From an uncultured Fibrobacterota bacterium (GTDB taxonomy: Bacteria; Fibrobacterota; CAYVZU01), in assembly GCA_964455935.1 (NCBI GenBank), contig CAYVZU010000006.1, positions 1,505 to 65,504 on the forward strand: a stretch of DNA of 64,000 nucleotides, in the 5' to 3' direction. A program made the position numbers and the translations under genes. Below the pieces are notes generated by a model, which had not been told where the DNA came from, made no database searches, and worked only from the letters and a program-made list of their open reading frames with translations. Position 1 is the first letter of the stretch; each line of letters starts with the position of its first letter. Positions 4,435 to 58,679 of the stretch are shown here, one piece after another.

Positions 4435-4458
4435 AGTTCAGCCCGAAACGCAAGATCC

Positions 4459-4474
4459 CGCAAATCGAATGCCA
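4459..4474 (-). promoter_or_regulatory. Putative -24/-12 (sigma-54-type) promoter upstream of the radical SAM gene
   Basis: The minus strand reads TGGCATTCGATTTGCG (GG-N10-GC). The -12 GC lies 26 nt upstream of ATG 4434. Confidence 0.45.
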
Positions 4475-4587
4475 TTGCGGGGTGTTTTAAACCCGCCGGG
4501 AAATCCCGCCCCAATTGCGGCATCCCGCTTCAAACACTGCTGAAAACCGTCCGCCTTTCCTTTTCCAATCTCGATTTCGGAGAAACC

Positions 4588-5550
4588 ATGGAAATGAATC
4601 GCCGTACATGGGAAGTAAAGCAAGAGGCCCGATTTGCGCACAGCCAGTTGCTGGACCCGGCGCTTTCGGGGTTTCTTGGCGCCAATGTCCCAAAACGCGC
4701 CAAGGACCGAAAGCGCCTGGAACTGCTTCGGACCGGTTTGAAGGACCGTATCTATATCGAAGCCGTGTACGCCCTTACGCACGTACTGATCTCCGAACCC
4801 GTTCAGGCGGAATCCATGTTCCGCAACCTGCTGGCTCATCGTGAGCATCTGGCGCAGCACCTGGGACGTGATGTGGGCATCCAGGTGGCGGCACTTGACT
4901 ATATGCAGAATCTTCGCGGAATGCTCAAGAACCCAACAGTCATCGAGTTCGAGAAATGCCGGGCGTTCGCCGCACAGGCAATCCTGGATTCCACAACCCT
5001 TTCCTTTGACAAGGAATTATTCGAATCGGACTTGAAAGCCGAATGCGAGCGGTCGGACCGCTTTGGCGAATGCCTGTGTGTTCTGTTCCTGGACATCGAC
5101 CACCTCAAAGCCATTAACGACCGATACGGGCACACCACCGGAACCAGGGCGATTGTTCAAGTGGCCCAGTGCATTAAGACCGTTCTGCGAAAGTACGATT
5201 CCGTGTACCGGTACGGAGGCGACGAATTTCTGGTCCTGCTTCCACAGGCGGATTGTCACCATGCCCAATCCATTGCCCGGCGGATCCAGAGGGCCATCCG
5301 GCGCAAACGCCTTTCCGAATTTCCCGCGCTTCCAGGCATCTCGATCGGCATCGCCCAATATGGGAAAGAGGGCCTTCGGGAGATCCATCGGGTGGTCGAA
5401 GCCGCGGACCGGGCCTTATACCGGGCCAAACAAGATGGACGGGACACGATTCGAATCCACGGATCGGAGCGCGAGCGATCCTTGAATTCGCGCGCTTCAC
5501 CGCCTCTTCGTCCATTGCGACCGCGCACCCCCCCTGCTTTCTCATGTTGA
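4588..5550 (+). CDS. Diguanylate cyclase (GGDEF) with N-terminal domain of unknown function
   Basis: RYGGDEFLVLLP active site, an RKYD (RxxD) I-site five residues upstream, and ADRALYRAK. I prefer ATG 4588 to the track's 4429, which would overlap the divergent gene. Confidence 0.85.
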   Translation: MEMNRRTWEVKQEARFAHSQLLDPALSGFLGANVPKRAKDRKRLELLRTGLKDRIYIEAVYALTHVLISEPVQAESMFRNLLAHREHLAQHLGRDVGIQVAALDYMQNLRGMLKNPTVIEFEKCRAFAAQAILDSTTLSFDKELFESDLKAECERSDRFGECLCVLFLDIDHLKAINDRYGHTTGTRAIVQVAQCIKTVLRKYDSVYRYGGDEFLVLLPQADCHHAQSIARRIQRAIRRKRLSEFPALPGISIGIAQYGKEGLREIHRVVEAADRALYRAKQDGRDTIRIHGSERERSLNSRASPPLRPLRPRTPPAFSC

Positions 5551-5690: not shown

Positions 5691-6119
5691 ATGTCTCAAG
5701 CCAAGTACGGCGACAAAGTCAAGGTCCACTACACCGGCACATTGGATGATGGAACCGTATTCGACACCTCGGTCGGCGGAGATCCCGTCGAGTTCACCAT
5801 TGGCGAAGGAACGGTGATTCCGGGTTTCGAGGAAGCCGTTTTGGGAATGGCCCCCGGTGATTCGAAAATTGCCGCGGTGCCCGCCACACAGGCATACGGA
5901 CCGTACAAGGACGAGATGATTGTCGACATCGACCGAAATCTTCTGCCGGCCGACCTGGAACCTGAGGTTGGTCAGCATCTGCAAATCCTGCAGGAAGGCA
6001 GCCAATCGGCGGTTGTTACGGTTGTCGATTTCTCCGATTCCATGGTCACCATCGACGCCAATCATCCGTTGGCTGGACACGACCTGACCTTCGAAATCAA
6101 GCTCATCGAGATTGGATAA
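5691..6119 (+). CDS. slyD: FKBP-type peptidyl-prolyl cis-trans isomerase (SlyD-like, no His-rich tail)
   Basis: VKVHYTGTLDDGTVFDTS, FTIGEGTVIPGFEEAVLGM and NHPLAGHDLTFEIKLIEI, with an IF-domain insert. SD is AAAGGAGG. Confidence 0.9.
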   Translation: MSQAKYGDKVKVHYTGTLDDGTVFDTSVGGDPVEFTIGEGTVIPGFEEAVLGMAPGDSKIAAVPATQAYGPYKDEMIVDIDRNLLPADLEPEVGQHLQILQEGSQSAVVTVVDFSDSMVTIDANHPLAGHDLTFEIKLIEIG

Positions 6120-6413
6120 GCTCTGCCAAGAGGCCGGTAAACCGTCATCCGGTGTCTGCTTTGCGGCCCCGCAGACTGCCCGCAACGACAGCCCCGGGGC
6201 AGCCTGGCAGCAGTATCGAGCACCGATTGAAGCGCTTCGGCTCGGTGCATCCGCCGAGAAGGATTTTCGCAAAAACGTGAATCCGTCTGCCTACGCAGAC
6301 TTTCCCCCCTTCGCGATTCGAGACCGTTGATTTGAGCACATCATTTGCTTCCCTCCTCGAAGCGATATGGACCTCAAGAGGACTGATTTCTTCTTGGCCC
6401 AAGGAGGTGAGGA

Positions 6414-6605
6414 ATGGACGAGAAGAGACGAAATGGGCGCTGGATTGCCTGGCTCATAATTCTTTTGGCAATTGCAATTCTTTCAGTCGCCCTGTTTCAA
6501 GGACCCCGCATCCCGGTTTCGGGAAACGGTCCGGAATCCGACACGCTGCAGCAGCCCCGTCGGGGTGAACCGATGCAGCGCCAACCCCAAGGAGAGAAGA
6601 AATGA
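6414..6605 (+). CDS. Small single-pass membrane protein (hypothetical)
   Basis: AAGGAGGTGAGGA-ATG SD and TM helix WIAWLIILLAIAILSVALF. ATGA overlap with the next ORF. Confidence 0.45.
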   Translation: MDEKRRNGRWIAWLIILLAIAILSVALFQGPRIPVSGNGPESDTLQQPRRGEPMQRQPQGEKK

Positions 6606-7048
6606 AAAGATTTGCCTGGATCCTCCCTGTTATGCTTATGGCCCTTTTGGCCACCTCCGCGCTGGCCCAAAAATCGAAGCGCAACAGCCGGCCGGCAACT
6701 GATACCGCTGCCACGCGCTCTCAACCCGTAGATACGGCCAATGGCGCGCTTCGCGCCGACACCATGAACACCATGAATGGCATGGACGGCATGGCCGATT
6801 CCGCCCGCATGGGCATGCACTGCGCCATGATGGGGCCCATGATGTCGAAGCAAATCTTGCTGGGCCGCGATGGAGGCGTTTTCGTTTTGATGGGCAACCA
6901 TCTAATGAAATACGACGACCGATTGACTCTGGTCAAAGATGTAAAGCTCAATATTGACATGAATGAGATGTGCCGCACCATGCAGGAATTCATGTCCAGT
7001 TGTCCCATGATGCAAAAGAAAATGCAAGGGCCGGGAGGCACCCGATAG
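6602..7048 (+). CDS. Secreted Met-rich protein (hypothetical, possible metal binding)
   Basis: Signal peptide MKRFAWILPVMLMALLATSALA. Met-dense stretches DTMNTMNGMDGMADSARMGMHCAMMGPMM and NEMCRTMQEFMSSCPMMQKKMQ. Confidence 0.55.
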   Translation: MKRFAWILPVMLMALLATSALAQKSKRNSRPATDTAATRSQPVDTANGALRADTMNTMNGMDGMADSARMGMHCAMMGPMMSKQILLGRDGGVFVLMGNHLMKYDDRLTLVKDVKLNIDMNEMCRTMQEFMSSCPMMQKKMQGPGGTR

Positions 7049-7231
7049 GGGGTTATCCCGCATGTCTCTTGCATATTTCCAAGCCGCTCCCCCTGAGCTT
7101 GTCAAAGGGTGGGCGGCCAAACCAACTCGTTTTGAGCAATTCGCTTCAGGGTTCGACAAGCTCAACATGAGCGGATTTCTGCCAGGAATTTCCGGGACCC
7201 AACCATAGGCGGGGCCACGGAAAATGGTACC

Positions 7232-7266
7232 CGCGTAGAGACGCCGCGCCATGGCGGCTCTACGCG
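7232..7266. terminator. GC-rich stem-loop between convergent genes (possible terminator for ptsI)
   Basis: CGCGTAGAG..CTCTACGCG (9 bp) encloses CGCC..GGCG. On the minus strand it is followed by GGTACCATTTTCC. Confidence 0.4.
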
Positions 7267-7276
7267 CGCCGGTCGC

Positions 7277-9040
7277 TCACAATTCCTTCAGGATCTCATC
7301 GACATCCCAAGCCGTGCGGCATGCAAGCGCTTTTTGGGCCGCCGCCCGCATGGTCTCCAAGCTTCGGCGGTTCAGCACAGCAGCCAGTTCGGGCAGCATT
7401 TGCGGGGAAACCGACAAAATATCGACTCCAAGTCCAAAGAGCAGGGCGGCATTGGCCGCCTGCTGCAACTCGCCGCATAACGTGACTTCACGGTGAGCCG
7501 CTTTTGCGACCTCCGCAATCCCGGCAATCAGGCGAAGCATCACCGGGTGGGCCACTCGCTTGTAATTTTCCAATTGCACATTCTCCCGGCCCGCGGCAAA
7601 AGTGTACTGCAGCAAATCATTTGTGCCAATACTCACAAAATCCACTCGGTCCACAAAATCGCGCAACGCCAGGGCCGCCGATGGGATCTCGACCATCATG
7701 CCAATGCGCAGATCGTTTCGGTCCACGCCCTCTTCGCGGCATGCCTCCTCAATGATATCAAGCGCCTTCTCCAACTCTTCCACCAGCGCGACAAACGGGA
7801 GCAGGACGCGTACCCTGGGCCGCGTCGAAACCCGCAGAATACTTTGGGTCTGTTTTTTCAGCAGCCAGGGATGATTGAGAAGGAAACGGATTCCGCGGCA
7901 GCCCAGCTGCGGGTTCTCCTCCTGGGCAAAGGCGATATAGGGTACCGATTTATCCGCTCCCAGATCGAGAAAACGCACAGTAACGGGAAAGCCCGAATGG
8001 ATCCGGGCGATCTCCTCAATCATGGCCGTTTCTTCCTCCAGACTTGGCATTGTTGCCTGCGCCATATAGAAGAACTCCGTGCGCAGCAGCCCCACACCCC
8101 GCGCCCCCAGCCGGCGGGCGTCCCAGGCCTGATTTGCATTGCTTACATTGGCCTCAACGCGCAAAACGGTTCCATCGGCACTGGTCAAGGGTCCCGGCAT
8201 TGGAAAGCGCACCCCAACGGCCTGCGCCGAAAGGCGTTCGGCCCGCGCCCGGTGGTATCGACTGTCGGATTCGGTGGGATGGATAATGACGATGCCGGCG
8301 TAGCCGTCCACAATCACAAGGTCGTCCGGACGCGCCAGGGCGCTGATCCCCGCCACACGCATCACAACCGGAACACCCAGCGACTTGGCGATGATAGCCG
8401 CATGCGACGTCTCGTCGCCTCTCTCGACCACGATTCCCAAGATCTTGCGCATATCCAGTAACGGGATATCGGACGGAACGAGGTTTTCGGCCACAAACAG
8501 AACCGGCGTGTCAATCCGTTGCAGGGGGTTGGTCCGGACGTGCTCGATTTCAAGCAGGTTTCGCAGCAGACGGAAATACACGTCCTCAATATCGGAGAAG
8601 CGCCGCCGGAGGTACTCGTCCTTGATCGAAGCGAACCGGTCCTGGATGCTGCGAATTTCACGGGCCAGCACGAATTCGATGTTGGCGCGCTCCCGGGCAA
8701 GCATCTCGCGAATGCGGCCCAGGAAGCTGGAATCCCGCAGCATGGAGATGTGCACCGCGAATATGTTCTCGGCCTCGGGACTCCCCTGTTCTGCCGTCCG
8801 CTGCTTTATCTGGTGAAGCTGGTCGCGGCTTTTTTCGGTCGCGCTCTCCAATCGCTTCTCCTCGCCGGCCAGATCCTCGACGGAAAACCGGTTTTTTTCC
8901 AGCGCGTCCAATTCGATTGGCCGGAACAGATACGCCTTGCCGATCGCGATTCCCGGAGCAATGGCGGCCCCGTGAAGCTCAATGCGAGGCGCGCTGGACC
9001 GTGGACGCATAGTGATTGGATCCCTTTCGTAACTATTCAC
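7277..9040 (-). CDS. ptsI: Phosphoenolpyruvate-protein phosphotransferase (PTS enzyme I)
   Basis: GDETSHAAIIAKSLGVPVV phospho-His region, LRTEFFYM, GCRGIRF and VSIGTNDLLQY. The start is either GTG 9040 or ATG 9010 (M11). Confidence 0.9.
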   Translation of the reverse strand: MNSYERDPITMRPRSSAPRIELHGAAIAPGIAIGKAYLFRPIELDALEKNRFSVEDLAGEEKRLESATEKSRDQLHQIKQRTAEQGSPEAENIFAVHISMLRDSSFLGRIREMLARERANIEFVLAREIRSIQDRFASIKDEYLRRRFSDIEDVYFRLLRNLLEIEHVRTNPLQRIDTPVLFVAENLVPSDIPLLDMRKILGIVVERGDETSHAAIIAKSLGVPVVMRVAGISALARPDDLVIVDGYAGIVIIHPTESDSRYHRARAERLSAQAVGVRFPMPGPLTSADGTVLRVEANVSNANQAWDARRLGARGVGLLRTEFFYMAQATMPSLEEETAMIEEIARIHSGFPVTVRFLDLGADKSVPYIAFAQEENPQLGCRGIRFLLNHPWLLKKQTQSILRVSTRPRVRVLLPFVALVEELEKALDIIEEACREEGVDRNDLRIGMMVEIPSAALALRDFVDRVDFVSIGTNDLLQYTFAAGRENVQLENYKRVAHPVMLRLIAGIAEVAKAAHREVTLCGELQQAANAALLFGLGVDILSVSPQMLPELAAVLNRRSLETMRAAAQKALACRTAWDVDEILKEL

Positions 9041-9201: not shown

Positions 9202-9570
9202 TCAGTCGCGAAGCAGCCGCCGGATCGCCTCCATCAAGTCGGCCAGAACAAACGGCTTGGTTATATACTCGTCGGCTTTTAAAATGTCCTTGCCAATCAT
9301 GCGATCGCGCATGGAGTCGCGGGCGGTCAACATGAGGATCTTGATTCCGCTAAAGCGGGGATTATCGCGGATCATTTTGCAGATTTCCCAACCGTCCACA
9401 TACGGCATCATGACATCCAGAATCACGATATCCGGGCTTTCGCGCGCCACATTGTCCAACACCTCGCGGCCATCCCCCAAAGAATCCACAGTAAATCCCC
9501 GTTTCTCCAGGTTGACAACCAGGAGTTCGCGGATGCTTGGATCATCATCCACCACAAGCACGCGGGCCAC
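9202..9570 (-). CDS. Single-domain response regulator (CheY-like receiver)
   Basis: VARVLVVDDDPSIRELL..DIVILDVMMPYVDGWEI..ITKPF. GTG 9570 lies 2 nt after the upstream stop. The longer track ORF overlaps the previous gene. Confidence 0.8.
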   Translation of the reverse strand: MARVLVVDDDPSIRELLVVNLEKRGFTVDSLGDGREVLDNVARESPDIVILDVMMPYVDGWEICKMIRDNPRFSGIKILMLTARDSMRDRMIGKDILKADEYITKPFVLADLMEAIRRLLRD

Positions 9571-9572
9571 GA

Positions 9573-9968
9573 TCAACCGGCCCCACGCGAAGCGTCCGGG
9601 GCCGTGGAAAGCGCGGTTTGGATGGTGCGCAAGAGTTCCCCCATGTCGAACGGCTTGGTGAGAAAGCCATCGGCCCCGCACGAACGCGCCGTTTCGTAAT
9701 CGGACTGCTGCGCCGCGGCCGTGACGAAAATGATGAATACTCCCTGGGTGCGCGGATCCTCGCGAAGACGGCGGCACACGTCAAAACCATTCATACCGGG
9801 CAGGCGCACATTCAACAGAATCACGGCTGGGGTCTCCTGCGCCGCTTTGTCCAGCCCCTCCTCCCCGGTCATTGCCACCGCGACATCGAAACCCCGCCGC
9901 GCAAGATTGATGCGCAGAAGCTCCACGACATCCTCTTCGTCTTCAATAATCAGGATACGCCCAGCCAT
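9573..9968 (-). CDS. Single-domain response regulator (CheY-like receiver)
   Basis: RILIIEDEEDVVELL..VILLNVRLPGMNGFDV..LTKPF. The start overlaps the kinase 3' end by 19 nt. Confidence 0.85.
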   Translation of the reverse strand: MAGRILIIEDEEDVVELLRINLARRGFDVAVAMTGEEGLDKAAQETPAVILLNVRLPGMNGFDVCRRLREDPRTQGVFIIFVTAAAQQSDYETARSCGADGFLTKPFDMGELLRTIQTALSTAPDASRGAG

Positions 9969-12900
9969 TTCGGCGGCTCCTTTGCGATGGTGAAATAAAA
10001 TGTGCTGCCCTTGCCCAACTCCGATTCAGCCCAAATGCGTCCTGCGTGGGCCTCTACAATACTCTTGGCAATGGCCAGCCCCAACCCGCTGCCCGTGCTC
10101 TTCTTCGTATCGGCGCGCTTATTGCGATAAAACTTATCAAAGATCCGGCCCAGATCCTCCGGCCCGATTCCGGGTCCGGTGTCGCTGACTCCAACCTGAA
10201 CCATGTCTCCGCCATCCATTGCGGTCACGCTCACCCGCCCTTTGGGCTCTACGTAGCGAATTGCATTGTCCAGCAGATTCAACAGGACCTGTTTAATGCG
10301 GTCCCTGTCGGCTGTGACCCAAAGGGTTTCCCCGGAGGCCCGAACATCGACCTCCACACCGGCCGGGACCGCCAAACCCGAAACGGTCTCGGATACCAAA
10401 TCCCCCATGCCAAACCGCCGGAATCGCATTTCGCTGATTCCGGTCTCGATTTTCGAAACATCCAGCATTTCGCCAATCAGCTTTCCTAACCGTTTCCCCT
10501 CGGACTCAATGGTCTGGAGATAACGGGTGCGTTCGTCTTCGCTCAACTGAATATCCTTTGCCAGAAGGGTCTCGGCGAAACCGATGATTCCGGTGAGGGG
10601 CGTACGCAGTTCATGGGACGCCATCGAGACGAATTCGCTCTTTAACTTATCGAGTTCCTTCAGCTTCTCGTTGAGCTCATCCAACTCGCGGTTCTTGCCG
10701 ACCAGTTCCTGGTTTGCCTGCGCCAGGCGCTCGCTGTGGCGATGAACGGCCTCCTCGGCATTGCGGCGATCCGTAATATCGCGCCAAGTGGAAACCGCCC
10801 CAACAATCCGGCCGCTGGGGTCCAGGATCGGTCCGGCGCTGATTGAGACAATAACGGTTGTTGCATCCGGCCGCCGAATGATCCATTCCTCGTCCGAAAT
10901 TACCTCGCCTTGCTCCATGGCGCGTTCCAGCGGCAGTTCACCGTACCGCGGCCGGCTGTGGCCGTCGAGAAAGAGGAATCCCCACTTCTCCGCCCGGTCC
11001 TGCGGCGCAACATCTTCGGGTGCTTCGGTGATGGACCCGATCAGAGAGCGCGCGTATTGGCTCATCATGCGGATGCGGTCCTCGCCGCCAAAGACAACCA
11101 GAAGGCCCTCGGGTGTTTGGTCCATAATCGCCTCGAGAATGCGACGGCTTTCTTCGGCCTCCCGAACGCGCGCTTCGGCGCGCTCGCGCTCCCGATTCAA
11201 CTGCTCCTCCCACTGGCGGCGCTCGGTCACATCGCGCACATATCCCAAAATACCCGCAATCCGTTCTTCCGCATCCCGCCAGGGCTCGAAGACTACCTCC
11301 AGAAACCGCCTTCGACCGTCCAGCGTCAATTCGAACTCGCCCCGCTCGCCACGGCCGGTGGCCAGGACCCTGCGTTTGACCTCGCCAAGCCGGTCCGCCT
11401 CATCCTGCGCAAATAGATCCCGGTCGGTCTTGCCTTCGATCGATGCCGCAAGGCCGTCAAATGTGCGCGAGGCCCAGATGTAGCGTTGGTTGCGGTCCTG
11501 CTGAAACAGAAGGTCGGGCGAATTTCGGGTGACAAGCTGAAGCCGCTCCTCGCTTTCCCGCAAGGCGCTCTCCCAGCGTCGGCGATCGCCGATGTCAATG
11601 ACTGACGCGACAACCGCATCCAGTTCGGCGGGAACGGATGCCGAAAGCAGCACATCCCGGAGCTGTCCCTGGCGGTCCACCAGGGTCGCTTCAAACCGCC
11701 CGGGCTGTGTTGGCCCTCCGCCGGCGACCGGCCCAAAATAGTCCCGGACCAGACGGTCGCGGTCGCGGTCCGAAAAAAAGTCCTTCCAGGACTTGCGGCC
11801 CTCGATTTCCGATCGTCCGTATCCGCTCAGCTTTTCAAATTCCGAGTTGACCAGGTGCACCACTTCGTCCTTGCCCACAATGGCCATGGCTGTCCCGGTG
11901 TTCTCAAAGATCGCCCTGTATCGGCGCTCGGAGTCGAGCCGTGCATTTTCGGTCCGCTTGCGCTCCAGCGCATTGGCGAACATGGTGACAACCACGCGCA
12001 ACAGCTTGATCTCTTCGTCTCCCCAACACCGCTCGTGTCGCGATTCAAAAAGAAGAAAGCCGGGAACCGATCCCCCATACATCATGGGCACCGCCACAAA
12101 GGCCCTGGTCTCGCGGCATGCGAAGAAAGCCCGCTCCTCTTCCGCTTCGGGCGGCAATTCCGAGAGCGTTCGAACCTGGAGCACTTTGCGCGCGCGGATA
12201 CGATCCGTAAGCCAGGTCAGGGTGCAAAGGAGCGGGGGTGCCACAGGCGACTCTTCGATGCCCGGACCCGATGACCAGCGATAGGCGCGCAGAGCCCGGG
12301 AAGAGCCGTTTTGAAAGAGCCAAATGCAGCCGGCATCGACCTCCGAAAACCGGCCAAGCAGCCTTAGCGCATTTTCGAGCCCGTTGTCGATCTCTATGGA
12401 TTTAAGATTGATAAAGTTGGTGGCCAAGGTGCCCACAAGCTTCTCGAATTCCATGGCATGGCGCAAGGCGCGTTCGTTTCGGACATTTTGCGTGATGTCG
12501 CGCCAGGCCACAACGGCGCCGCGAATCACCCCGGAATCGTCCAGAACCGGCGCGGCATTCGCCGAAATATATAAGGGCTCTCCATCCCGTCTGTACATAA
12601 ACTGCTGGTTGGTCACCGTTTCACCATGATAAAGGGCGCGTGATAGCGGCAACTCCTCCAATTTTGCGGGCGTCAATCCATCCGCGTGATGAATGCGCAA
12701 CAGCTCCGCTTGTTGTTCGAGGCTCATCCCCAAAAACCGGTCCCGCGGAATCCCGGTCATCATTTGGACAAACCGGTTCACGCTTCGAACTTTGGCCGAG
12801 GCATCGATGACGGTTATGCCTTCGGGAATGCAATCCATAATGGCATTCAGAATCCGCTGACCTTCCTCCGCCTCTCGGGCCCTGGACTCGGCTGTCTCCC

Positions 12901-13819
12901 GTGCCTTGGCCAGCTCCAATTCGGCGTGTTTGATATCGGTAATGTCGTGGGAAATGGCCATTACGGTTTCCGCGGGCAATTGATCGTCTTTTTCGGGAAC
13001 CAGGCGGGCGTGAAACCAGCGCTTTCCGCCGGTCCCCGCGTATTCGTATTCCAGGCTTTGCTCCAGGCCTTTGCCGAAGGCCAACCCCAGGCGGCGGTCC
13101 CACTCCGCGGCATACGAAGATGTCATGCCCAAATCCGCCATGCTCTTGCCCCGCAGCGTATCGAGTCCCAGTCCGGTCAAGCGTTCGCCGGCCGGATTGA
13201 TATAAATGTGCTGACGACAGCGGTCGAAGCGCATAATCACGTCGGGCGAGTTTTCGACCAGGGTCCGGAACTCCCGTTCCCGCTGGCGCAGCATGGCCGT
13301 AATGCGGTTGCGCTCAACCATCTCCGATCGCAAGGCCTCGTTGGCCTTGGCCAGTTCCGTGGTGCGCAGACGCACGCGCGCCTCTAATTCGTCATGCGCC
13401 CTGCGCAGAGCGCGCTCGGCCTCCTCCTTCTCCTGGCGCATCGTCCGCTTTTCCAGCACTCCCTTCACGGCCGGACCCAGGCGCGCCAGGCGCTCTTTGG
13501 TCACATAATCGGCGGCCCCGGCTTTGATCGAATCCGCCGCGGTCTCCTCGTTCAGCGATCCGGTGACAATGACCACGGGAAGCAGGGGATCGTATTCCTG
13601 CGCCAGGTGCAGTGCCTCCAAACCCGAGATATCCGGCAGCAGATAATCGGCCAACACCAGATCGGGTTTAAATGTGCGAAGGGCCTCGATGAAGTCCACT
13701 CTCGCCATCACCAGGCGCACCGTTGCCATGATCCCCGCCCGGCGAAGCTCACGCTGATTAAGTTCCGCGTCCGTCAGCACGTTCTCCAGCATCAGAACAC
13801 GGACTTCACTCGAAGCCAT
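9950..13819 (-). CDS. Hybrid sensor histidine kinase: N-terminal receiver, multiple PAS and a GAF-like region, HisKA, HATPase
   Basis: REC (VLMLENVLTD..LVLADYLLPD), repeated PAS-like blocks with coiled-coil linkers, H-box SHELRTPLTGIIGF, LLDNAIRY, DTGPGI and GSGLGLAI. ATG 13819 (GAGGGAATGAA-ATG) is preferred over the track start at 14017. Confidence 0.9.
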   Translation of the reverse strand: MASSEVRVLMLENVLTDAELNQRELRRAGIMATVRLVMARVDFIEALRTFKPDLVLADYLLPDISGLEALHLAQEYDPLLPVVIVTGSLNEETAADSIKAGAADYVTKERLARLGPAVKGVLEKRTMRQEKEEAERALRRAHDELEARVRLRTTELAKANEALRSEMVERNRITAMLRQREREFRTLVENSPDVIMRFDRCRQHIYINPAGERLTGLGLDTLRGKSMADLGMTSSYAAEWDRRLGLAFGKGLEQSLEYEYAGTGGKRWFHARLVPEKDDQLPAETVMAISHDITDIKHAELELAKARETAESRAREAEEGQRILNAIMDCIPEGITVIDASAKVRSVNRFVQMMTGIPRDRFLGMSLEQQAELLRIHHADGLTPAKLEELPLSRALYHGETVTNQQFMYRRDGEPLYISANAAPVLDDSGVIRGAVVAWRDITQNVRNERALRHAMEFEKLVGTLATNFINLKSIEIDNGLENALRLLGRFSEVDAGCIWLFQNGSSRALRAYRWSSGPGIEESPVAPPLLCTLTWLTDRIRARKVLQVRTLSELPPEAEEERAFFACRETRAFVAVPMMYGGSVPGFLLFESRHERCWGDEEIKLLRVVVTMFANALERKRTENARLDSERRYRAIFENTGTAMAIVGKDEVVHLVNSEFEKLSGYGRSEIEGRKSWKDFFSDRDRDRLVRDYFGPVAGGGPTQPGRFEATLVDRQGQLRDVLLSASVPAELDAVVASVIDIGDRRRWESALRESEERLQLVTRNSPDLLFQQDRNQRYIWASRTFDGLAASIEGKTDRDLFAQDEADRLGEVKRRVLATGRGERGEFELTLDGRRRFLEVVFEPWRDAEERIAGILGYVRDVTERRQWEEQLNRERERAEARVREAEESRRILEAIMDQTPEGLLVVFGGEDRIRMMSQYARSLIGSITEAPEDVAPQDRAEKWGFLFLDGHSRPRYGELPLERAMEQGEVISDEEWIIRRPDATTVIVSISAGPILDPSGRIVGAVSTWRDITDRRNAEEAVHRHSERLAQANQELVGKNRELDELNEKLKELDKLKSEFVSMASHELRTPLTGIIGFAETLLAKDIQLSEDERTRYLQTIESEGKRLGKLIGEMLDVSKIETGISEMRFRRFGMGDLVSETVSGLAVPAGVEVDVRASGETLWVTADRDRIKQVLLNLLDNAIRYVEPKGRVSVTAMDGGDMVQVGVSDTGPGIGPEDLGRIFDKFYRNKRADTKKSTGSGLGLAIAKSIVEAHAGRIWAESELGKGSTFYFTIAKEPPKWLGVS

Positions 13820-14058
13820 TTCATTCCCTCTGTTCGGATGCTGAGCCTGTCCCATGCAAGCGCCCGACCTCCCGCTCGCCCTGGGGCCCGCGACCGTGGA
13901 CGGGAATTGACGTTTCACCCCAAGTGCTTTGCCAAGGCACAACAACAAAGGGGCTGCAACCCGATCCCCCCCAGAGGGGCCATTAACTCGCCGGGGACTC
14001 GGTGCTTCACGCCCCATCTCCTCCGCTTACCACTCCGGGTCCCCTTTTTCGGCTGTTT

Positions 14059-15216
14059 TTAGAATCGAAGAATCGCAGCTGCCGGCGAATCGTCGGGCAT
14101 ACGGTCGGTATCCATAATGAATACGGTTCCCCTGTTTAGAAGCGTTTGGACCGCTGCAAAATCCAAGAGATCCTCGCTGTGGTGATCCGGTTGCGGGCGC
14201 AAATCCACAGTGCCCGTATCCGGCTCGAACCGGCCCCACTGCTCGACGCCGCCGGCCACAAACAAGGTCTCGATCCGCGCGTTGTAGGCGTCCGGTACGA
14301 TCCGATGCAGGTCCTTAACGACCCGCGGGGTGGCTGCCAGACTACGGTACTGCTCGGCGGCCGCTTGCCGCGCCCGCTGGAAATGGGGCTGCAAAACCGG
14401 CCAGACGCGTGAATGAAGCTCCTCGGGAAGGGCGCGGTCGAGATTTCCCGTGAGCTTGTCATCCAACAAATGAAGGTACGTATTGGCTTCGCGATAGATC
14501 GGCAGCAGATATTCCACTCCGGCCAGAACCAGGGGCGCGCGTTCTTCCTTAAGGACCGCATGAACTCCGCGATCAACCAGACGAAAAAAGCGGAAGACCT
14601 GTTCCTTGGCATCCTCCTCACCCCCGCCCTGGCCATGAAAAACAGCGGCCCGCACCGCCGAGCCTTCCCGCAGGCCCACGGCCGTATGGAATTGCAGTTG
14701 CCGTTCAAACACATCAAAAGCAAGGGCTTCGGCAAGATTGGGCGGGACCTGGTGAAGCTTAATCTGACTTAGGTTGGTATGTGAACCTTCGAAAAGCCTG
14801 ACATGGTGCTGACTGACAACCAGCAGAAAAAACCGGCCGTCTTCGCATAGGAAAGAAAGCAGGGGTTTTATATGAAAACCGTGCCCAACAACGGCCTTTT
14901 CGCGAAAAGGAATCGGCAGTCGGTAATAGGAGGCAAACCCGGGTGAGAGAAACACGGCCAGACCGTCGCTCTGATGACGCCAGAAAAAAGGGTCGTTAAG
15001 AATTCGAAAACCGGGCCGCAAAAACTCCGCAATCTCCGCCTGTCCAAAGCCGCGCAAGGAAAGGTCCTGCTCGACCTCGCGGATCAGGTTCTTGAACCGG
15101 ATATGGTTCTGGCGTGTTTCAATACCAGCTCGGGCGGCCGGCATGTAGATGGAAATTGCAGGAAGGCCCTGATGCGAAGTAAGTCTCCGCAGATCGTCTA
15201 TGGTCAGAAGGTCCAT
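14059..15216 (-). CDS. eRF1/Pelota-like protein of the bacterial aeRF1 (baeRF) type, uncharacterised
   Basis: The N-terminus LTIDDLRRL..PAISIYMPAARAG..RQNHIRFKNLIREVE, HQSDGLAVFLSPGF..YRLPIPF, HIKPLL, APLVLAGVEYLLPIYRE and the C-terminal AAILRF match my memory of baeRF-family proteins. Not confirmed by HMM. Confidence 0.55.
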   Translation of the reverse strand: MDLLTIDDLRRLTSHQGLPAISIYMPAARAGIETRQNHIRFKNLIREVEQDLSLRGFGQAEIAEFLRPGFRILNDPFFWRHQSDGLAVFLSPGFASYYRLPIPFREKAVVGHGFHIKPLLSFLCEDGRFFLLVVSQHHVRLFEGSHTNLSQIKLHQVPPNLAEALAFDVFERQLQFHTAVGLREGSAVRAAVFHGQGGGEEDAKEQVFRFFRLVDRGVHAVLKEERAPLVLAGVEYLLPIYREANTYLHLLDDKLTGNLDRALPEELHSRVWPVLQPHFQRARQAAAEQYRSLAATPRVVKDLHRIVPDAYNARIETLFVAGGVEQWGRFEPDTGTVDLRPQPDHHSEDLLDFAAVQTLLNRGTVFIMDTDRMPDDSPAAAILRF

Positions 15217-15227
15217 GCCCTGTCCTT

Positions 15228-15812
15228 TCAGGAAACGGGTGGTGTGCCACCCGCAGGATGGTCAACAATGCGCACCGTTGTGGCTTGGGGGCCCTCCAGG
15301 CCTTCCTCCTCCACAAACCAGACCCCGGTACCGGGTTCCAGGCGGTCGTAGCCGCTGTGCAGAACGCTGTTGCGGTGAAAGTAGATGTCGCGGCCGTCAA
15401 GAGTGCGCAGAAACCCGGTGCCAAACTGTGGAAAGAGCTTCGCGACAACCGCCTGAATCTCCTGATGCGGATGGACTTTCACATCGCCCCGCTGTTTCCG
15501 CGTAAGACTGTCGAGCTGCCGCCAGGCCGCCTGGAAGGCGTCGCGAATCTCCGCGGCCAGGTCCGAATGCATGTCGCCTTTGCTGGGTTCGCGCACCACC
15601 ACGATTTCATGGCCCGGCGGAACGGTGATGTCGATGCGAAGCCGGAAGGGCCGGCCTCGGTGCTGATGCTGCTGACGGTTTTCCACGGCAACGCGGCAAC
15701 TGGAAATGTGATCGCAGACTCGCTCCAGTTTCGCGGCCTTTTCGCGGATCAACTCCTCAAGTTCGGCGGTCTTCTCGATATCGCGAAAACTAATCTCCAA
15801 TGGAACGTTCAT
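15228..15812 (-). CDS. HPF/RaiA (S30AE)-like ribosome-associated domain fused to a cold-shock domain
   Basis: N-terminal half: PLEISFRDIEKTAELEELIREKAAKLERVCDHISSCRVAVE..FRLRIDITVPPGHEIVV..IRDAF. C-terminal half: GTGFLRTLDGRDIYFHRNSV..LEPGTGVWFVEEEGLEGPQATTV (CSD). SD is GGGAGA. Confidence 0.7.
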   Translation of the reverse strand: MNVPLEISFRDIEKTAELEELIREKAAKLERVCDHISSCRVAVENRQQHQHRGRPFRLRIDITVPPGHEIVVVREPSKGDMHSDLAAEIRDAFQAAWRQLDSLTRKQRGDVKVHPHQEIQAVVAKLFPQFGTGFLRTLDGRDIYFHRNSVLHSGYDRLEPGTGVWFVEEEGLEGPQATTVRIVDHPAGGTPPVS

Positions 15813-15894
15813 ACTTTCTCCCGATGGAGGCGCGTTACGTTCGCTTTGTCCTTTGCGGGACCTGCAATGTCACCAGTTTACCGGATTGAAAAAT

Positions 15895-15910
15895 TGCGAA
15901 AAACGTGCCA
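15895..15910 (-). promoter_or_regulatory. Putative sigma-54 (-24/-12) promoter of the HPF-CSD/baeRF operon
   Basis: The minus strand reads TGGCACGTTTTTCGCA, against the consensus TGGCACG-N4-TTGCA (one mismatch, correct GG-N10-GC spacing). It lies about 85 nt upstream of ATG 15812. TGTC-N10-GACA at 15980-15997 sits upstream of it. Confidence 0.55.
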
Positions 15911-16123
15911 CGGCCTTTCCTGCCCAGGCTCGATTTGCGCCGTGAAAGAGCATTGACGGGATTGTAGGCGCCGACAAAATGTCAGGATTACGGGACAAAC
16001 CAAGGATTTTACTTCCCCGGCCGTTTCGTCGCAATAAGCCAGTCAATGGACCCAACCCTTTCAGGGAAATAGGCCCGCGCGAAAAGCTTGCCACACCGAA
16101 ACCGGATCATTTACATTAGATTC

Positions 16124-17519: not shown

Positions 17520-18278
17520 TTACAGCTCGTAGCCCACGTTCAGGCCAAAATAGAAATCCCTTTCATAGAGTCTGTTTCCAAGACCATCCGCCACGGTTGA
17601 AAGCGGCAACTGGAAATAGAGTGCCGGAGTTACATCAACAATCGTCCGGTACGTGGAACTAATTCCAATACCCAGAGCCGAGAAGTTCGAGGACCATTTA
17701 TTGTCGTCCAGGTCATTCTCCATCGCGAATCCCATCTGAAGGACGGGCGTTACGGCCAGATCCTTGCGAACGTCGAACTCGTGCGAAAAGCCCAGATCGA
17801 AATACTGCGACTGCGCATCATCATACGCGCCAACAGGGACAATGGAATAGGTCAGTGTGGGCGCCGAGATAATGTCATAGCACAATCGTAGGGACCATTC
17901 CATTTTCCAAGAGGCCTCTTGGCCAAATAGGGTCGGGTAGGTGTTATGGGAATAACCAATCCCTGCCTCAAGAGAGCGCAGAAAAGGCAGGACCCCGGAG
18001 TAACTCAGATTGTAGTCGGCCTGGGCAAAACCGGAACCCGCTTCATCGCCAAGATTGTAGCTGGCCCAGAATTCAGCTCTGATTCCATGCGCGGAAAATT
18101 CGAGGGCCGGCTGAAACGCCGGACGATCATGGAGATTGGCTCCTCGCCAAAGGTATTTGCTGACAAAGCCCGTATTGACACCCAGACTCCAGGGCTTAGG
18201 GGCCGCGCCATCCGCCTTTTGTGCAAACAGAAGGCCGGTAAAAATCAGCACCGCAATGCAACTGCGGATAAAAACCAT
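17520..18278 (-). CDS. Outer-membrane beta-barrel, TorF/Gcw_chp-like putative porin
   Basis: Signal peptide, then GFVSKYLWRGANL..PAFQPALEFS..EFWASYNL, which resembles the TIGR02001-type barrel. Alternating beta pattern to the C-terminus. Confidence 0.6.
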   Translation of the reverse strand: MVFIRSCIAVLIFTGLLFAQKADGAAPKPWSLGVNTGFVSKYLWRGANLHDRPAFQPALEFSAHGIRAEFWASYNLGDEAGSGFAQADYNLSYSGVLPFLRSLEAGIGYSHNTYPTLFGQEASWKMEWSLRLCYDIISAPTLTYSIVPVGAYDDAQSQYFDLGFSHEFDVRKDLAVTPVLQMGFAMENDLDDNKWSSNFSALGIGISSTYRTIVDVTPALYFQLPLSTVADGLGNRLYERDFYFGLNVGYEL

Positions 18279-18413
18279 ACTGTCCTCCTCATTTTCAGAA
18301 GATGTCCGTCTGAAAAAGTAAGCTTCTCCCGTGCACGAATCAATCGTGTTCGCCCTGCTTTAGTCGCGGACCCTTTCCTATTGCCGCAGACCGGAAAGTT
18401 ATTTTCCCATGCA

Positions 18414-20408
18414 ATGAAAAGGCATCCTGATGGATCTCAAACAATGGGGCCGCCGCCACTAAAGCCCGGCGGCCGCGTGCTTTTCTCATCTCTCCCGGTG
18501 CCCAGCATTGTCCCGGAAGCTCAGTGCGGCAATATTCCTTTGGGCATCGCCTCGGTGGCGCTGTTTGCGGAACGTACCGGAGCACGAATCGTTCCCAACA
18601 TTGCAGCGCAGGATAGTACGGGAACACTCGGCGATGCAGCGCTCGTTGAATTCCTGCTGAAGCATGCGCCTAATACCATTGGGTTGAGTTGTTCGGTCTG
18701 GAATATCGAGCGCTCGCTTTTCATCGCGGGCGAGGTCAAAAAGAAATCTCCCCGAACACAAATATGGCTTGGGGGACCGGATATTTCTGAAGACTCGCCG
18801 TTTGTGCGTGATCCCGGCGCGCCGTTCGATCTGGCCATTCCCGGCGAAGGGGAAATTGCTGTCGCGCACCTGCTGTCCGGCATTCCCGCCCAAGATATGG
18901 GAGGCCTTCTCCTGCCCGGCGGAGTTCGAACACAAGGGACAATTCGGCCGCAACTTTTAACGGATCTTTCCCCTATTCACGACCCGTTCATTGAAGGGCT
19001 TATTACGCCGGAAGCGGACCGGGTATTGTTGGCCGAATTCAAACGCGGATGCCTGCATGGATGCGCATACTGTCGTTACCACCAGGGGCGCGGCGGAACC
19101 ATGGCCCGTCGCCAAAATGCGGAAATCGCCGAGTTCTTTGGTTTTGCGCGCGCAAGCCGCGCGGCCGAGATCTACGTGCTCGATCCCAGCTTCGAACAGC
19201 GGGAACATTTCAATGATTTTCTGCGATGGCTTTCCCGAGAAAACCGCCGACCCGTCATCCCGCTCTCGGTGGAGCTTCGCGCGGAAACGATTGCGCCAAA
19301 AACAGCAATGCTCCTGGCCCGGGCCGGAGTGCGAAAAGTCGAAGCGGGACTTCAGAGCATTGGCAAAAGGACGCTGGCCCAGGTTGGCCGGAAGCTGGAT
19401 CCGGACGATTTTATCGCAGGTATCGATGCGCTGCGCGCCCACGGCATTGCAGTGAAAACGGATCTCATGACCGGACTGCCGCTCGATACCCCGGCGGGAT
19501 TGGAGCAAACGTTGGATTTCTTAATGAAGCATGGACTGCATCGCGACGTGCAGGTTTTCCGGACCCAGGTCCTGCCCGGAACAACGCTTCGTCGCAGAGC
19601 TCGCCAATGGGGAATCTCGTTTCATGCAGCCCCACCCTATACGGTGCGTTCCACTCCCGCCTGGAACCCCAATGAGCTCGACCGCGCGTTCGAGGGGATC
19701 GAGGACCGGCTAGGCATTCGTCTCTCGCCCGAAGCCCGGCCCGTGATCGCCCCTTGGAATGGGGCGCGTTACGAATCACGCGCCCACGCCGGCGGAGGGC
19801 TATACCAGTATGCTTTCAACCTGGACCATTCGGGTGACCGCGCAAAGTTTCGCGCTGAAACTTTTTCCCTGGCGGCCGCGCAGGTCCTGCTCTGGGTCAA
19901 GGCCGCTGATGCAAACCGGCATTGTTGCCCGATGTGCGGCGCCATTGGCCGGTGCGCGACGGCAAATCCTTTTTCCAGCTTGTTTGTTCTTATCGAGACC
20001 GAACCCGGCATTGCGCTTGACATCGCAGATTCAATTCAAAAGGAACTCGACGAAAAGATTCCATCCCGATACCTGGAGCGGCTGCATTGGCCCTGTGGGG
20101 GCATCCGGCCCACGCGCAAACTGCTGTTCAAACTGGAGGCATGCGCAAGGTATGGGGATACAAGCTGGTTTGCGGAGGCGCGCAAAATCGCCACCCTCTT
20201 ATGGACCGTCAACTCCAATCCCCATGCTTTTCGCCGACTGCGGCATTTTGATTGCGAACGCGATTTTCTCTATTTCGATTTGCGCGATCAAGGGGAAAGC
20301 AACCACGAGTCTCTCTTCCGACAACTCAAGAAGAGCAGGCATGCCGACCGCTTTCTTCTGCCCGGCCCCGCGCTCCACTGGAAATGGATCGAGTTCCTTG
20401 AGAAATGA
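18414..20408 (+). CDS. B12-binding-domain radical SAM protein with long C-terminal extension
   Basis: GIASVALFAERTG..IGLSCSVWN (B12-like domain) and FKRGCLHGCAYCRY (CxxxCxxC). The track start 17946 overlaps the porin gene, so ATG 18414 (or 18444) is more plausible. Confidence 0.8.
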   Translation: MKRHPDGSQTMGPPPLKPGGRVLFSSLPVPSIVPEAQCGNIPLGIASVALFAERTGARIVPNIAAQDSTGTLGDAALVEFLLKHAPNTIGLSCSVWNIERSLFIAGEVKKKSPRTQIWLGGPDISEDSPFVRDPGAPFDLAIPGEGEIAVAHLLSGIPAQDMGGLLLPGGVRTQGTIRPQLLTDLSPIHDPFIEGLITPEADRVLLAEFKRGCLHGCAYCRYHQGRGGTMARRQNAEIAEFFGFARASRAAEIYVLDPSFEQREHFNDFLRWLSRENRRPVIPLSVELRAETIAPKTAMLLARAGVRKVEAGLQSIGKRTLAQVGRKLDPDDFIAGIDALRAHGIAVKTDLMTGLPLDTPAGLEQTLDFLMKHGLHRDVQVFRTQVLPGTTLRRRARQWGISFHAAPPYTVRSTPAWNPNELDRAFEGIEDRLGIRLSPEARPVIAPWNGARYESRAHAGGGLYQYAFNLDHSGDRAKFRAETFSLAAAQVLLWVKAADANRHCCPMCGAIGRCATANPFSSLFVLIETEPGIALDIADSIQKELDEKIPSRYLERLHWPCGGIRPTRKLLFKLEACARYGDTSWFAEARKIATLLWTVNSNPHAFRRLRHFDCERDFLYFDLRDQGESNHESLFRQLKKSRHADRFLLPGPALHWKWIEFLEK

Positions 20409-20858: not shown

Positions 20859-22163
20859 ATGGAGGAGACAAGTTCCTCATCGCAGATTACAGAGCCTCCG
20901 GGTACCAAAGAAAACTTCCCCTTCCCCACACGCGAGATCGGCGATCTCAGTTCGGCGAGTCGTTTTGTTGCCTACATCCAAAGCCAACCCGGTATTCACG
21001 CCCCCCGAACACGCAAAGGCTTTGCGGCTCCCAAAAATATCAACACCGATTATTTTCGCAAGCGATGGTATCCCAAAACAACCGCCGCCGAATGGAACGA
21101 CTGGAACTGGCAATTGCACAACCGCATCACCACGGCCGCCCAGTTCGAAACCATGTTCCAGCTGTCTGTCGATGAGCGCAGCGCATTGGGCCAGGGCGAG
21201 AGCTCTCTTCCGGTTGCCATCACGCCTTACTACGCTTCCCTGGTTCATGGCAAGGATTCCACGAATCCGGTCCGTCGCTGCGTCATCCCAACATCGGCCG
21301 AGCAGGTCTACTCCCTTTGGGAGTCAAACGATCCCTTGTCGGAAGAGAATCACAGCCCGGTTCCGGGAATTGTGCACCGCTATCCCGACCGCGTCTTGTT
21401 TCTGGCTACGAATTTCTGCTCGACATACTGCCGGTATTGCACGCGCTCCCGCATGGTGGGCGATCACGACTGCCACGGCAGCCCCATCGGCCGAAGCCAG
21501 TGGCAGGGGGCCATCGACTACATTGCCTCCCATCCGGCCGTGCGGGACGTCCTCATCTCGGGCGGGGACCCGCTTACACTGAAGGACGAGGATCTCGATT
21601 GGCTGTTGGGATCGGTGCGCGCGATTCCCCACGTGGAAATTGTCCGGCTGGGAACAAAAATACCGGCCGTGCTGCCCCAGCGCATCACGCCAGGGCTGGT
21701 GAAGATGCTGCGCAGGCATCACCCGTTGCTGATGAGCCTGCATTTCGCCCACCCCGACGAATTGACTCCCGAAACAAGGGCCGCGTGCGAGCTTCTGGCC
21801 GATGCTGGAATTCCGCTGGGCAGCCAGACGGTCCTGCTGGCCGGGATCAATGACGACCCCGCCATCCTCAAGCAGCTCTATCACGGCCTGCTTAAGGCGC
21901 GCGTGCGGCCGTACTATTTATACCAGTGCGATCCCATCCTGGGTTCTTCGCATTTTCGCACGCCCGTCGAAAAGGGAATTAAAATCATCAGCCAATTGCG
22001 CGGCCATACCACCGGCTATGCCGTGCCGCAATACGTCATCGACGCCCCGGGCGGAGGCGGCAAGATTCCCGTGGGTCCCGAGTATGTGATCGGCTACGAA
22101 GGCAGCAACCTGCTTCTTCGCAATTACGAAGGCAAGATCTTCCAATACCCCGATCACCCGTGA
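20859..22163 (+). CDS. kamA: L-lysine 2,3-aminomutase (KamA family radical SAM/PLP enzyme)
   Basis: WNDWNWQLHNRI, CSTYCRYCTRSRMVG, ISGGDPL, YLYQCDPILGSSHFRTP and VIDAPGGGGKIP. SD is AAAGGAGAG. Confidence 0.9.
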   Translation: MEETSSSSQITEPPGTKENFPFPTREIGDLSSASRFVAYIQSQPGIHAPRTRKGFAAPKNINTDYFRKRWYPKTTAAEWNDWNWQLHNRITTAAQFETMFQLSVDERSALGQGESSLPVAITPYYASLVHGKDSTNPVRRCVIPTSAEQVYSLWESNDPLSEENHSPVPGIVHRYPDRVLFLATNFCSTYCRYCTRSRMVGDHDCHGSPIGRSQWQGAIDYIASHPAVRDVLISGGDPLTLKDEDLDWLLGSVRAIPHVEIVRLGTKIPAVLPQRITPGLVKMLRRHHPLLMSLHFAHPDELTPETRAACELLADAGIPLGSQTVLLAGINDDPAILKQLYHGLLKARVRPYYLYQCDPILGSSHFRTPVEKGIKIISQLRGHTTGYAVPQYVIDAPGGGGKIPVGPEYVIGYEGSNLLLRNYEGKIFQYPDHP

Positions 22164-54087: not shown

Positions 54088-54104
54088 TTGCAAATGACAT
54101 GCCG
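54088..54104 (-). promoter_or_regulatory. Putative sigma-54 (-24/-12) promoter upstream of the beta-barrel gene
   Basis: The minus strand reads CGGCATGTCATTTGCAA (GG-N10-GC with TTGCA). The -12 element lies 52 nt upstream of ATG 54038. Confidence 0.5.
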
Positions 54105-56923: not shown

Positions 56924-56926
56924 GCG

Positions 56927-57979: not shown

Positions 57980-58001
57980 CTCACACCTTCTCTTTGCCGC
58001 T

Positions 58002-58679
58002 TCAATCCAGGGATTCGATCCTGAAATTTTTAAAGTGGTTCTGGTTCATGCTGACGATCTGTTTGGCAAAATTCAGCGGCTTCACCGAATGTCTCAGCAC
58101 AACCCGGTATTCCAATCGAAACCGGCCCTTGGCGGACCCCACGGATTCAAGCCGGATCTGGTCGAAACTGCCGGTCAGATTTTCCCGAAGAAACGTCTGA
58201 AAATCGGACATATTCTCTACATCCACCTGTAGCCGGTATCTGCGACGACTGATGCAGTCTCCGCCATAATCAAGCCGCGTCATTGCAACGGCAATGGTAA
58301 CATAGACCAGCATGATAAGCCCCACAAGCCAGAATTGCCCCAAACCGCATGACATTCCCATGACAATGACCAGGAATACATACGTCATATCGCGGGGGTT
58401 CCGGATTGCGGTGCGAAAACGGATAATAGCAACCGCGCCAATCAAACCGAAAGCCCTGGCAAGGTTATCGCCGATCAATATGGTGACACCGGCAGCGATG
58501 ACCGTCAAAAGCGGGATCGTTTGGATAAACGATTGCCGATACCTCCGGCCCCGGTGCGTATAAAGGTACACCAGGGATAGAATGATTCCCGCCAGCAGGG
58601 CGACCGACAACGCGAGTGCGGTCCGTGCGGGTTCGATGGGTTCAGACGTCAGCAGTTTCCCCAGAAAGTCTGGCATCAT
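58002..58679 (-). CDS. DUF4956-like integral membrane protein
   Basis: LALSVALLAGIILSLVY, GDNLARAFGLIGAVAIIRFRTAIRNPRDMTYVFLVIVMGMSCG. Confidence 0.7.
   Translation of the reverse strand: MMPDFLGKLLTSEPIEPARTALALSVALLAGIILSLVYLYTHRGRRYRQSFIQTIPLLTVIAAGVTILIGDNLARAFGLIGAVAIIRFRTAIRNPRDMTYVFLVIVMGMSCGLGQFWLVGLIMLVYVTIAVAMTRLDYGGDCISRRRYRLQVDVENMSDFQTFLRENLTGSFDQIRLESVGSAKGRFRLEYRVVLRHSVKPLNFAKQIVSMNQNHFKNFRIESLD

Follow-up and report, generated by a model that had tools for sequence, protein, structure and literature searches.

Neighbouring genes for HPFcold-type and Balon-like ribosome hibernation factors, with a predicted sigma-54 promoter, in an uncultured Fibrobacterota bacterium

Introduction

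Two families of bacterial ribosome hibernation factor, Balon and HPFcold, have been described bound to the ribosome. Helena-Bueno et al. (2024, PMC10901736) determined structures of ribosome-bound Balon in the company of RaiA and EF-Tu, and HPFcold, reported in 2026, is the protein CBU_0020 of Coxiella burnetii, solved on the C. burnetii ribosome (PDB 9T0Z/9TZE; PMC13392368). Here, we describe a pair of adjacent genes for an HPFcold-type and a Balon-like protein on a 64,000-nucleotide (nt) stretch of DNA, referred to throughout as the window, from an uncultured Fibrobacterota bacterium (GenBank assembly GCA_964455935.1, contig CAYVZU010000006.1, positions 1,505 to 65,504). All coordinates are those of the window.

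The association between the two kinds of gene was first recognized through genome comparison. The baeRF-1 clade goes back to Burroughs & Aravind (2019, PMC6514570), who described its conserved neighbourhood with HPF/YfiA genes and predicted that its members act with HPF as non-catalytic blockers of the ribosomal A site; rescue roles were also weighed for some baeRF-1 families. In the later structural work, raiA was the most frequent neighbour of Balon genes, Balon and RaiA shared one ribosome in two-thirds of the Balon-bound ribosomes of Psychrobacter urativorans, and one published state had Balon without RaiA on ribosomes bearing mRNA and tRNA (PMC10901736). For HPFcold, electron cryo-microscopy (cryo-EM) placed the S30AE domain in the tRNA/decoding cleft of the 30S subunit and the cold-shock domain (CSD) in the mRNA exit channel, bound to the anti-Shine-Dalgarno 3′ terminus of the 16S rRNA, and in Coxiella the factor works by itself (PMC13392368). 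HPF-Csp, HPF-SigE and HPF-CBS chimeras have been listed by Chan et al. (preprint 10.1101/2025.11.04.686544), who also reported that chimeric hpf genes often adjoin Balon genes. A preliminary description of the window had held that neither the fusion of the two HPFcold domains nor the pairing of the two genes had been studied; the fusion is HPFcold itself (PMC13392368), and the pairing is treated in PMC6514570, PMC10901736 and 10.1101/2025.11.04.686544.

Results

The gene pair

The two genes lie in tandem on the minus strand, and their coordinates and the sequence of the spacer agree with the earlier reading of two open reading frames (ORFs) 11 nt apart, with AAGGA preceding the second start (Table 1). 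Such tight coupling implies that both proteins are made together, and the operon organization of the pair is supported, as is its proposed role in parking ribosomes in hibernation. We consider it highly probable that this is a stress or dormancy operon encoding two hibernation factors that act at complementary sites on the ribosome.

Both domains of the first protein matched Pfam above the gathering scores: Ribosomal_S30AE (PF02482) with 45.3 bits (gathering score 23.7) at residues 6-107, and CSD with 30.4 bits (gathering score 27) at residues 122-181. The AlphaFold2 (AF2) model (predicted local distance difference test, pLDDT, 76.7) has a β-α-β-β-β-α domain followed by a five-strand barrel, with a disordered linker of low pLDDT at residues 110-116. 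In Foldseek searches, the top match of the N-domain was RaiA in the P. urativorans Balon+RaiA ribosome (chain 8rd8_D, TMt 0.80), matches to RaiA, HPF and protein Y ranged from TMt 0.7 to 0.84, and the C-domain matched CspA-type proteins with TMt 0.84-0.87. The S30AE-CSD fusion noticed in the preliminary description was thus borne out by Pfam, AF2 and Foldseek alike. In a search of PDB sequences, residues 1-180 aligned with residues 6-178 of chain 9 of 9T0Z/9TZE (E = 8.9e-33), and BLASTP gave 38% full-length identity to CBU_0020. The RNA-binding aromatic residues of the CSD (F134, F145 and H146) were invariant in 22 homologues. We infer that the first gene encodes HPFcold, and by analogy with the Coxiella protein its CSD would be expected to bind the anti-Shine-Dalgarno end of the 16S rRNA. 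The family comprises at least 901 clusters at 90% identity, with both domains in all of the 120 best listed, and occurs in at least 578 GTDB species genomes. The best GTDB matches were Fibrobacter metagenome-assembled genomes (MAGs) with 59-61% identity, and an identical copy of the gene was present on a groundwater-metagenome contig.

The ORF list, which was made mechanically, also contains a 232-amino acid (aa) ORF at 15258-15956 (plus strand), antisense to the HPFcold gene. It is most likely spurious, since the gene on the opposite strand has strong homology.

The second protein matched Pfam baeRF_family7 (154.6 bits) and baeRF_family3 (144.1 bits), and its residues 9-385 aligned with chain B of 8RD8 over the full length (E = 3.2e-12). 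The AF2 model had a pLDDT of 84.4 and a predicted TM-score (pTM) of 0.80, with a disordered loop at residues 167-200. The top six Foldseek ranks (E from 2e-24 to 2e-13) were taken up entirely by Balon, in structures of the P. urativorans, M. smegmatis and M. tuberculosis proteins, with aRF1, eRF1 and Pelota ranking next. The eRF1-like (baeRF-type) fold that had been proposed for 14059-15216 was thereby confirmed. Neither a GGQ nor a NIKS motif was found in the protein; the sole glutamine of the loop, Q196, gives way to histidine in 19 of 28 relatives, of which just one has any GGQ. The C-domain of the model includes a β-hairpin (strands 327-331 and 336-340) in which W327 and G328 are invariant in 28 relatives. 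This hairpin corresponds to the Balon-type insertion, which is the EF-Tu contact in Balon. The Balon-like family to which the protein belongs comprises at least 2964 clusters, and the best GTDB matches had 40-41% identity.

Several comparisons weigh against equating this protein with Balon itself. The full-length match to NCBIfam NF052287 (AOC03_06830 family ribosome hibernation factor, Balon) scored 148.3 bits against a cutoff of 330, and structural alignments gave only 18-19% identity to the solved Balons. There is no His-Pro dipeptide anywhere in the protein, and in the HMMER alignment Gly31-Ile32 falls opposite the "EHPA" of the decoding-centre loop of P. urativorans Balon, a correspondence that is not certain. 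NF052288 (Msmeg1130 family) gave 25 bits, with a cutoff of 480. By its NCBIfam scores, the protein is best classed as a relative within the Balon superfamily, not as an equivalog.

Distribution of the pair

Homologous loci, denoted by L-numbers, were taken from GTDB genomes and metagenomes, and each census covers up to 80 loci of a scan. The pair is retained in the closest clade (71-81% identity). In L096, the HPFcold protein is 81% identical and the Balon-like protein is 76% identical over the 41 residues present on the contig, its gene starting 10 nt downstream. L092/L093 share 73% (HPFcold) and 71% (Balon) identity and have a 10-nt spacer. The corresponding values for L258, from activated sludge, are 74% and 71%, with the Balon gene within about 50 nt after HPFcold; its aligned Balon and kinase stretches have near-identical scores to those of L092, and the two probably represent the same or a very close organism. 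A more distant locus, L007 from a Zixibacteria MAG (HPFcold 53%, Balon 36%), has the genes in the same order with a 54-nt gap.

Outside these loci the pair was rarely encountered. A Balon-like gene was present within 5 kb at 4 of the 80 best HPFcold loci in GTDB species genomes, at none of which was it adjacent in the same order, and at 3/80 metagenome HPFcold loci; it was not found at metagenome HPFcold relatives of 57-64% identity. Starting from the Balon-like gene, any S30AE gene lay within 3 kb at 8/80 GTDB loci and an HPF-CSD gene at 1/80, and three of the first ten Balon-like loci had an adjacent S30AE gene. The pair thus represents, within one clade, an association that recurs elsewhere but is loosely kept, and it was found at 3-5% of other HPFcold loci. 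The two genes are conserved neighbours in the closest clade and do not form a widely conserved module, and our counts temper the published "frequent" adjacency of HPFcold and Balon genes to a sporadic, clade-specific one.

In L009, a Woeseiaceae MAG, two divergent Balon-like paralogues lie within 2.5 kb of each other, at 3468-4667 (minus) and 5755-7143 (plus), and a short HPF gene (7172-7495) is found just downstream of the second.

The predicted sigma-54 promoter

The −24/−12-type element noted earlier upstream of the pair is present, with one mismatch to TGGCAC-N5-TTGCW, the GG-N10-GC spacing and the same orientation as the gene (Table 1). It is not the best such match in the window, as had been stated; a perfect one is found at 60305-60290 on the minus strand. 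We aligned nine upstream regions, those of the window, L096, L092, L094, L007, three Fibrobacteres loci and L032, which take in the three closest relatives of the window locus. The regions were otherwise unalignable, and the sole conserved block was TGGCAYG-N4-TYGCR, in which the GG and A of the −24 element and the T-GC of the −12 element are invariant. Enrichment was then assessed in the interval from −200 to −20, allowing up to two mismatches with GG and GC fixed. Upstream of non-cyanobacterial HPFcold genes, the motif was present at 7/59 loci in the sense and 0/59 in the antisense orientation, where about 1.0 would be expected (Poisson P ≈ 9e-5), and at 0/25 cyanobacterial loci. Cyanobacteria are not known to have sigma-54, and these loci therefore serve as a negative control. 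The conserved block and the enrichment upstream of related genes make the promoter plausible, and on balance we lean somewhat towards sigma-54 dependence of the operon.

We considered the possibility that the motif is a chance match and that an ordinary sigma-70-type or other alternative-sigma promoter drives the operon. The −12 element reads TCGCA, not TTGCA, and the same strand carries a sigma-70-like site, matching at 9/12 positions, further upstream at 16034-16006. The window as a whole contains three sigma-54 matches where 2.37 would be expected, and at least as many turned up in 47 of 100 shuffled sequences; because this is chance level, the support for the promoter comes from the related loci, not from the window. 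About 85% of HPFcold loci lack the motif. A six-frame scan of the 64-kb window for GAFTGA, the RpoN box and the Walker/ESELFG motifs of enhancer-binding proteins (EBPs) found neither rpoN nor an activator. These points all weigh against sigma-54 control. Against a chance match stand the unique conservation of the block in the nine regions, its enrichment in the sense orientation with none at cyanobacterial loci, and several other well-placed sigma-54-type sites in the window (Table 1), and we regard this alternative as possible but unlikely.

The preliminary description had gone further and suggested that the system is enhancer-regulated. This reading is not supported, since neither rpoN nor an activator was found in the window and the upstream repeat is unconserved. 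The TGTC-N10-GACA repeat does occur where it was described, at 15997-15980. Arms of only 4 bp would arise by chance, and the repeat is not conserved in L092 or L096; a role as an activator site is unsupported. The divergent genes upstream of the pair were likewise rejected as sources of an activator: in the window these are a lipoprotein gene followed by an OmpA-family gene, and in L092 a CHASE4 sensor, none of them an EBP. A structured RNA or riboswitch was also rejected for the 5′ untranslated region and the spacer between the Balon and kinase genes, which had no Rfam match at E ≤ 1 and folding z-scores of −0.06 and +0.79. Neither that spacer nor the upstream region had repeat copies in the window or the loci, as a mobile element would.

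The further well-placed sites along the window point to the use of sigma-54 by this organism. The perfect site precedes an OsmY-like gene with two BON domains. OsmY-type genes are among the usual neighbours of Balon in other genomes, and the combination hints at a sigma-54 stress regulon.

Downstream signalling genes

The pair is followed on the same strand by genes for a hybrid sensor kinase, two single-domain response regulators and PtsI, none of which is an EBP. The kinase ORF was listed with 1355 aa and a start at 14017. Its orthologue in L092/L258 (60-63% identical) starts within 9 nt of the Balon stop codon, and the alignment begins only at residue ~52-54 of the window protein, from which we conclude that the listed ORF runs too far in the 5′ direction. 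Reading from the sequence, we place the real start at ATG 13855 or ATG 13819, the latter having a GAGGGA ribosome-binding site (RBS). The distance from the Balon stop to the likely kinase start would then be ~200-240 nt (13819-14058), and this spacer makes co-transcription of the kinase uncertain in the window, which counts against a single operon that includes it. The GTDB set contained no close genome, and the best match of PtsI there was from a Fibrobacteria MAG (41%).

Table 1. Coordinates of the hibernation gene pair, its putative control elements and other features in the window
Feature	Coordinates	Strand	Basis and remarks
HPFcold-type gene, 194 aa	15228-15812	minus	ORF list; S30AE/HPF domain at residues ~5-109, short linker, CSD at ~119-184 (Pfam, AF2)
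Balon-like gene, 385 aa	14059-15216	minus	ORF list; baeRF-1 clade, Pfam baeRF_family7/3
Intergenic spacer tgaAAGGACAGGGCatg, 11 nt	15217-15227	minus	AAGGA is the RBS of the second gene, 6 nt before its ATG
RBS of first gene, GGGAGA	15817-15822	minus	Sequence reading; 4 nt before ATG 15812
Predicted sigma-54 promoter TGGCACGTTTTTCGCA	15895-15910	minus	−24 GG / −12 GC; 82 nt before first ATG
TGTC-N10-GACA inverted repeat	15980-15997	minus	About 70-80 nt upstream of −24 element
Hybrid sensor kinase gene	9950-13855	minus	REC, five PAS, GAF, HisKA, HATPase (Pfam)
CheY-like single-domain response regulator gene	9573-9968	minus	Response_reg 96.9 bits; overlaps kinase stop codon
Second single-domain response regulator gene	9202-9572 (start approximate)	minus	Response_reg 92.2 bits, residues 73-186 of ORF 9202-9777
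PtsI gene	7277-9040	minus	~160 nt after second response regulator
Perfect sigma-54 consensus TGGCACTTGCATTGCT	60290-60305	minus	33 nt before GTG start of two-BON-domain gene
Two-BON-domain (OsmY-like) gene	59536-60257	minus	Pfam BON 123.6 bits
DUF2383 gene	60343-60873	plus	Divergent from BON gene
Sigma-54-like site, 2 mismatches	54089-54104	minus	50 nt before ATG 54038 (243-aa protein, no Pfam match)
Sigma-54-like site, 2 mismatches	4459-4474	minus	24 nt before ATG 4434 (B12-binding radical SAM)
Sigma-54-like site, 2 mismatches	1022-1037	minus	Just upstream of possible TTG start near 989

Other genes in the window

Two B12-binding radical SAM genes and one lysine-2,3-aminomutase-like radical SAM gene are located at 2995-4434 (minus), 17946-20408 (plus) and 20859-22163 (plus). 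Because the ORF starting at 17946 overlaps a gene on the opposite strand (17520-18278), its listed 5′ end is probably too far upstream. A same-strand cluster at 55802-59472 (minus) encodes a CotH kinase-family protein (55802-56923), a 350-aa protein without Pfam match, a DUF4956 protein (58002-58679) and a 276-aa ORF (58642-59472).

Discussion

The structures of the related proteins suggest how the two factors might act. If the HPFcold protein binds as its Coxiella counterpart does, its S30AE domain would occupy the decoding/tRNA cleft of the 30S subunit, while its CSD would lie in the mRNA exit channel and hold the anti-Shine-Dalgarno 3′ end of the 16S rRNA, thereby blocking translation and shielding the rRNA end from RNases. 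The Balon-like protein, as a non-catalytic aeRF1 homologue, would fill the A site up to the peptidyl-transferase centre in an mRNA-independent manner, as in the Psychrobacter and Mycobacterium structures, probably together with EF-Tu-GDP. Both factors could probably share one 70S ribosome, in the way of Balon and RaiA. Transcription would most likely start from the predicted sigma-54 promoter, given the motif and its conservation, and a single transcript, induced by stress, would yield both factors. In this clade, the operon would run on into the REC-PAS-GAF kinase and the two CheY-like regulators, whose role may, speculatively, be to detect the inducing condition or to exert feedback on it. 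In its entirety, the proposal that HPFcold and Balon-like factors, driven by an enhancer-dependent sigma-54 promoter, bind the 70S ribosome together, and that the co-encoded kinase and CheY-like regulators time ribosome parking and release, is a tentative one. If true, hibernation in this lineage would answer to a signalling system of its own, and the decoding centre, mRNA channel, anti-Shine-Dalgarno tail, A site and peptidyl-transferase centre would be covered jointly by two factors.

Alternatively, the two proteins might serve separate ribosome pools or conditions, with Balon on still-translating and HPFcold on vacant ribosomes, and their adjacency would then reflect co-regulation only. The sporadic pairing (4/80 and 3/80 HPFcold loci, 1/80 Balon-like loci) is in keeping with such a division, as are the published state of Balon without RaiA on mRNA- and tRNA-bearing ribosomes (PMC10901736) and the solitary action of HPFcold in Coxiella (PMC13392368). 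Literature searches turned up no co-occupancy of HPFcold and Balon. On the other side, Balon and RaiA do share most Balon-bound ribosomes in P. urativorans, in the two-thirds proportion given above (PMC10901736), the N-domain of the window protein finds its best match in the RaiA chain of that very complex, and the 11-nt coupling implies joint production of both proteins. We find separate pools a doubtful explanation.

It is quite improbable that the 194-aa protein works mainly in the manner of cold-shock proteins, chaperoning RNA or regulating particular mRNAs, and not in ribosome hibernation. The RNA-binding motifs of its CSD are kept and there are weak NCBIfam matches to CspE and CspA, but the homology to the ribosome-bound HPFcold extends over the full length, both domains and linker included, the CSD of which is bound to the anti-Shine-Dalgarno sequence (PMC13392368), and the S30AE domain is conserved across the family.

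For the 385-aa protein, an active part in release or rescue that frees stalled ribosomes, as with aeRF1 or Pelota, would be in line with its three-domain fold of that type, with the rescue roles considered for some baeRF-1 families (PMC6514570) and with the "rescuing" of ribosomes raised in the preliminary description, yet it is very improbable indeed, because the protein has no GGQ motif, its only loop glutamine is unconserved and in a loop predicted to be disordered, NIKS is lacking, both sequence and fold are nearer to Balon than to aRF1, eRF1 or Pelota, and the protein is co-encoded with a hibernation factor.

The HPFcold and Balon-like pair belongs to families that are already characterized, and both the families and their pairing are published. 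Since structures and genomic association are known, the locus has little discovery value in that respect, and its modest novelty lies only in sigma-54 control, as predicted here, and in the sensor kinase and phosphorelay genes attached to the pair. Literature searches turned up no sigma-54-dependent or phosphorelay control of hibernation factors. The locus offers a testable regulatory prediction, namely that a subset of HPFcold genes, including this operon, lies behind conserved sigma-54-type promoters, and the kinase and CheY-like regulators that follow the hibernation genes are a possible handle on hibernation triggers in uncultured bacteria.

In the canonical rpoN-hpf operon, from which the Pfam name "sigma-54 modulation protein" derives, rpoN precedes hpf and the two genes share a transcript. 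The window resembles that operon in that an HPF-family gene is tied to sigma-54 biology; it differs in that rpoN is not nearby and the HPF paralogue is itself a predicted sigma-54 target. Compared to the baeRF-1 and HPF/YfiA neighbourhoods (PMC6514570; 10.1101/2025.11.04.686544), the type of gene pair and the functional prediction are the same, whereas the HPF partner in the window is a CSD fusion, and a kinase and two CheY-like regulators follow.

With Balon (P. urativorans AOC03_06830, PDB 8RD8/8RDV/8RDW; M. smegmatis Msmeg1130 and M. tuberculosis Rv2629, PDB 8V9J/L/K), the window protein shares the three-domain aeRF1-like fold, the lack of GGQ and NIKS, the disordered middle-domain loop, the C-terminal β-hairpin insertion, an alignment over the full length and a position beside an HPF-family gene. 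It is set apart by its low identity, its score below the NCBIfam cutoff, its best Pfam matches to baeRF_family7 and family3, and the Gly-Ile that apparently takes the place of the His-Pro of P. urativorans Balon in the N-domain loop. With HPFcold CBU_0020, the likeness includes the architecture of S30AE, short linker and CSD, the similar length (194 and 183 aa), the full-length identity and the conserved RNA-binding residues of the CSD. The window gene differs in adjoining a Balon-like gene and a predicted sigma-54 promoter, neither of which is mentioned for Coxiella in the available part of that report, and in belonging to a distinct lineage, that of a groundwater bacterium whose best, if weak, affinity is to Fibrobacteria.

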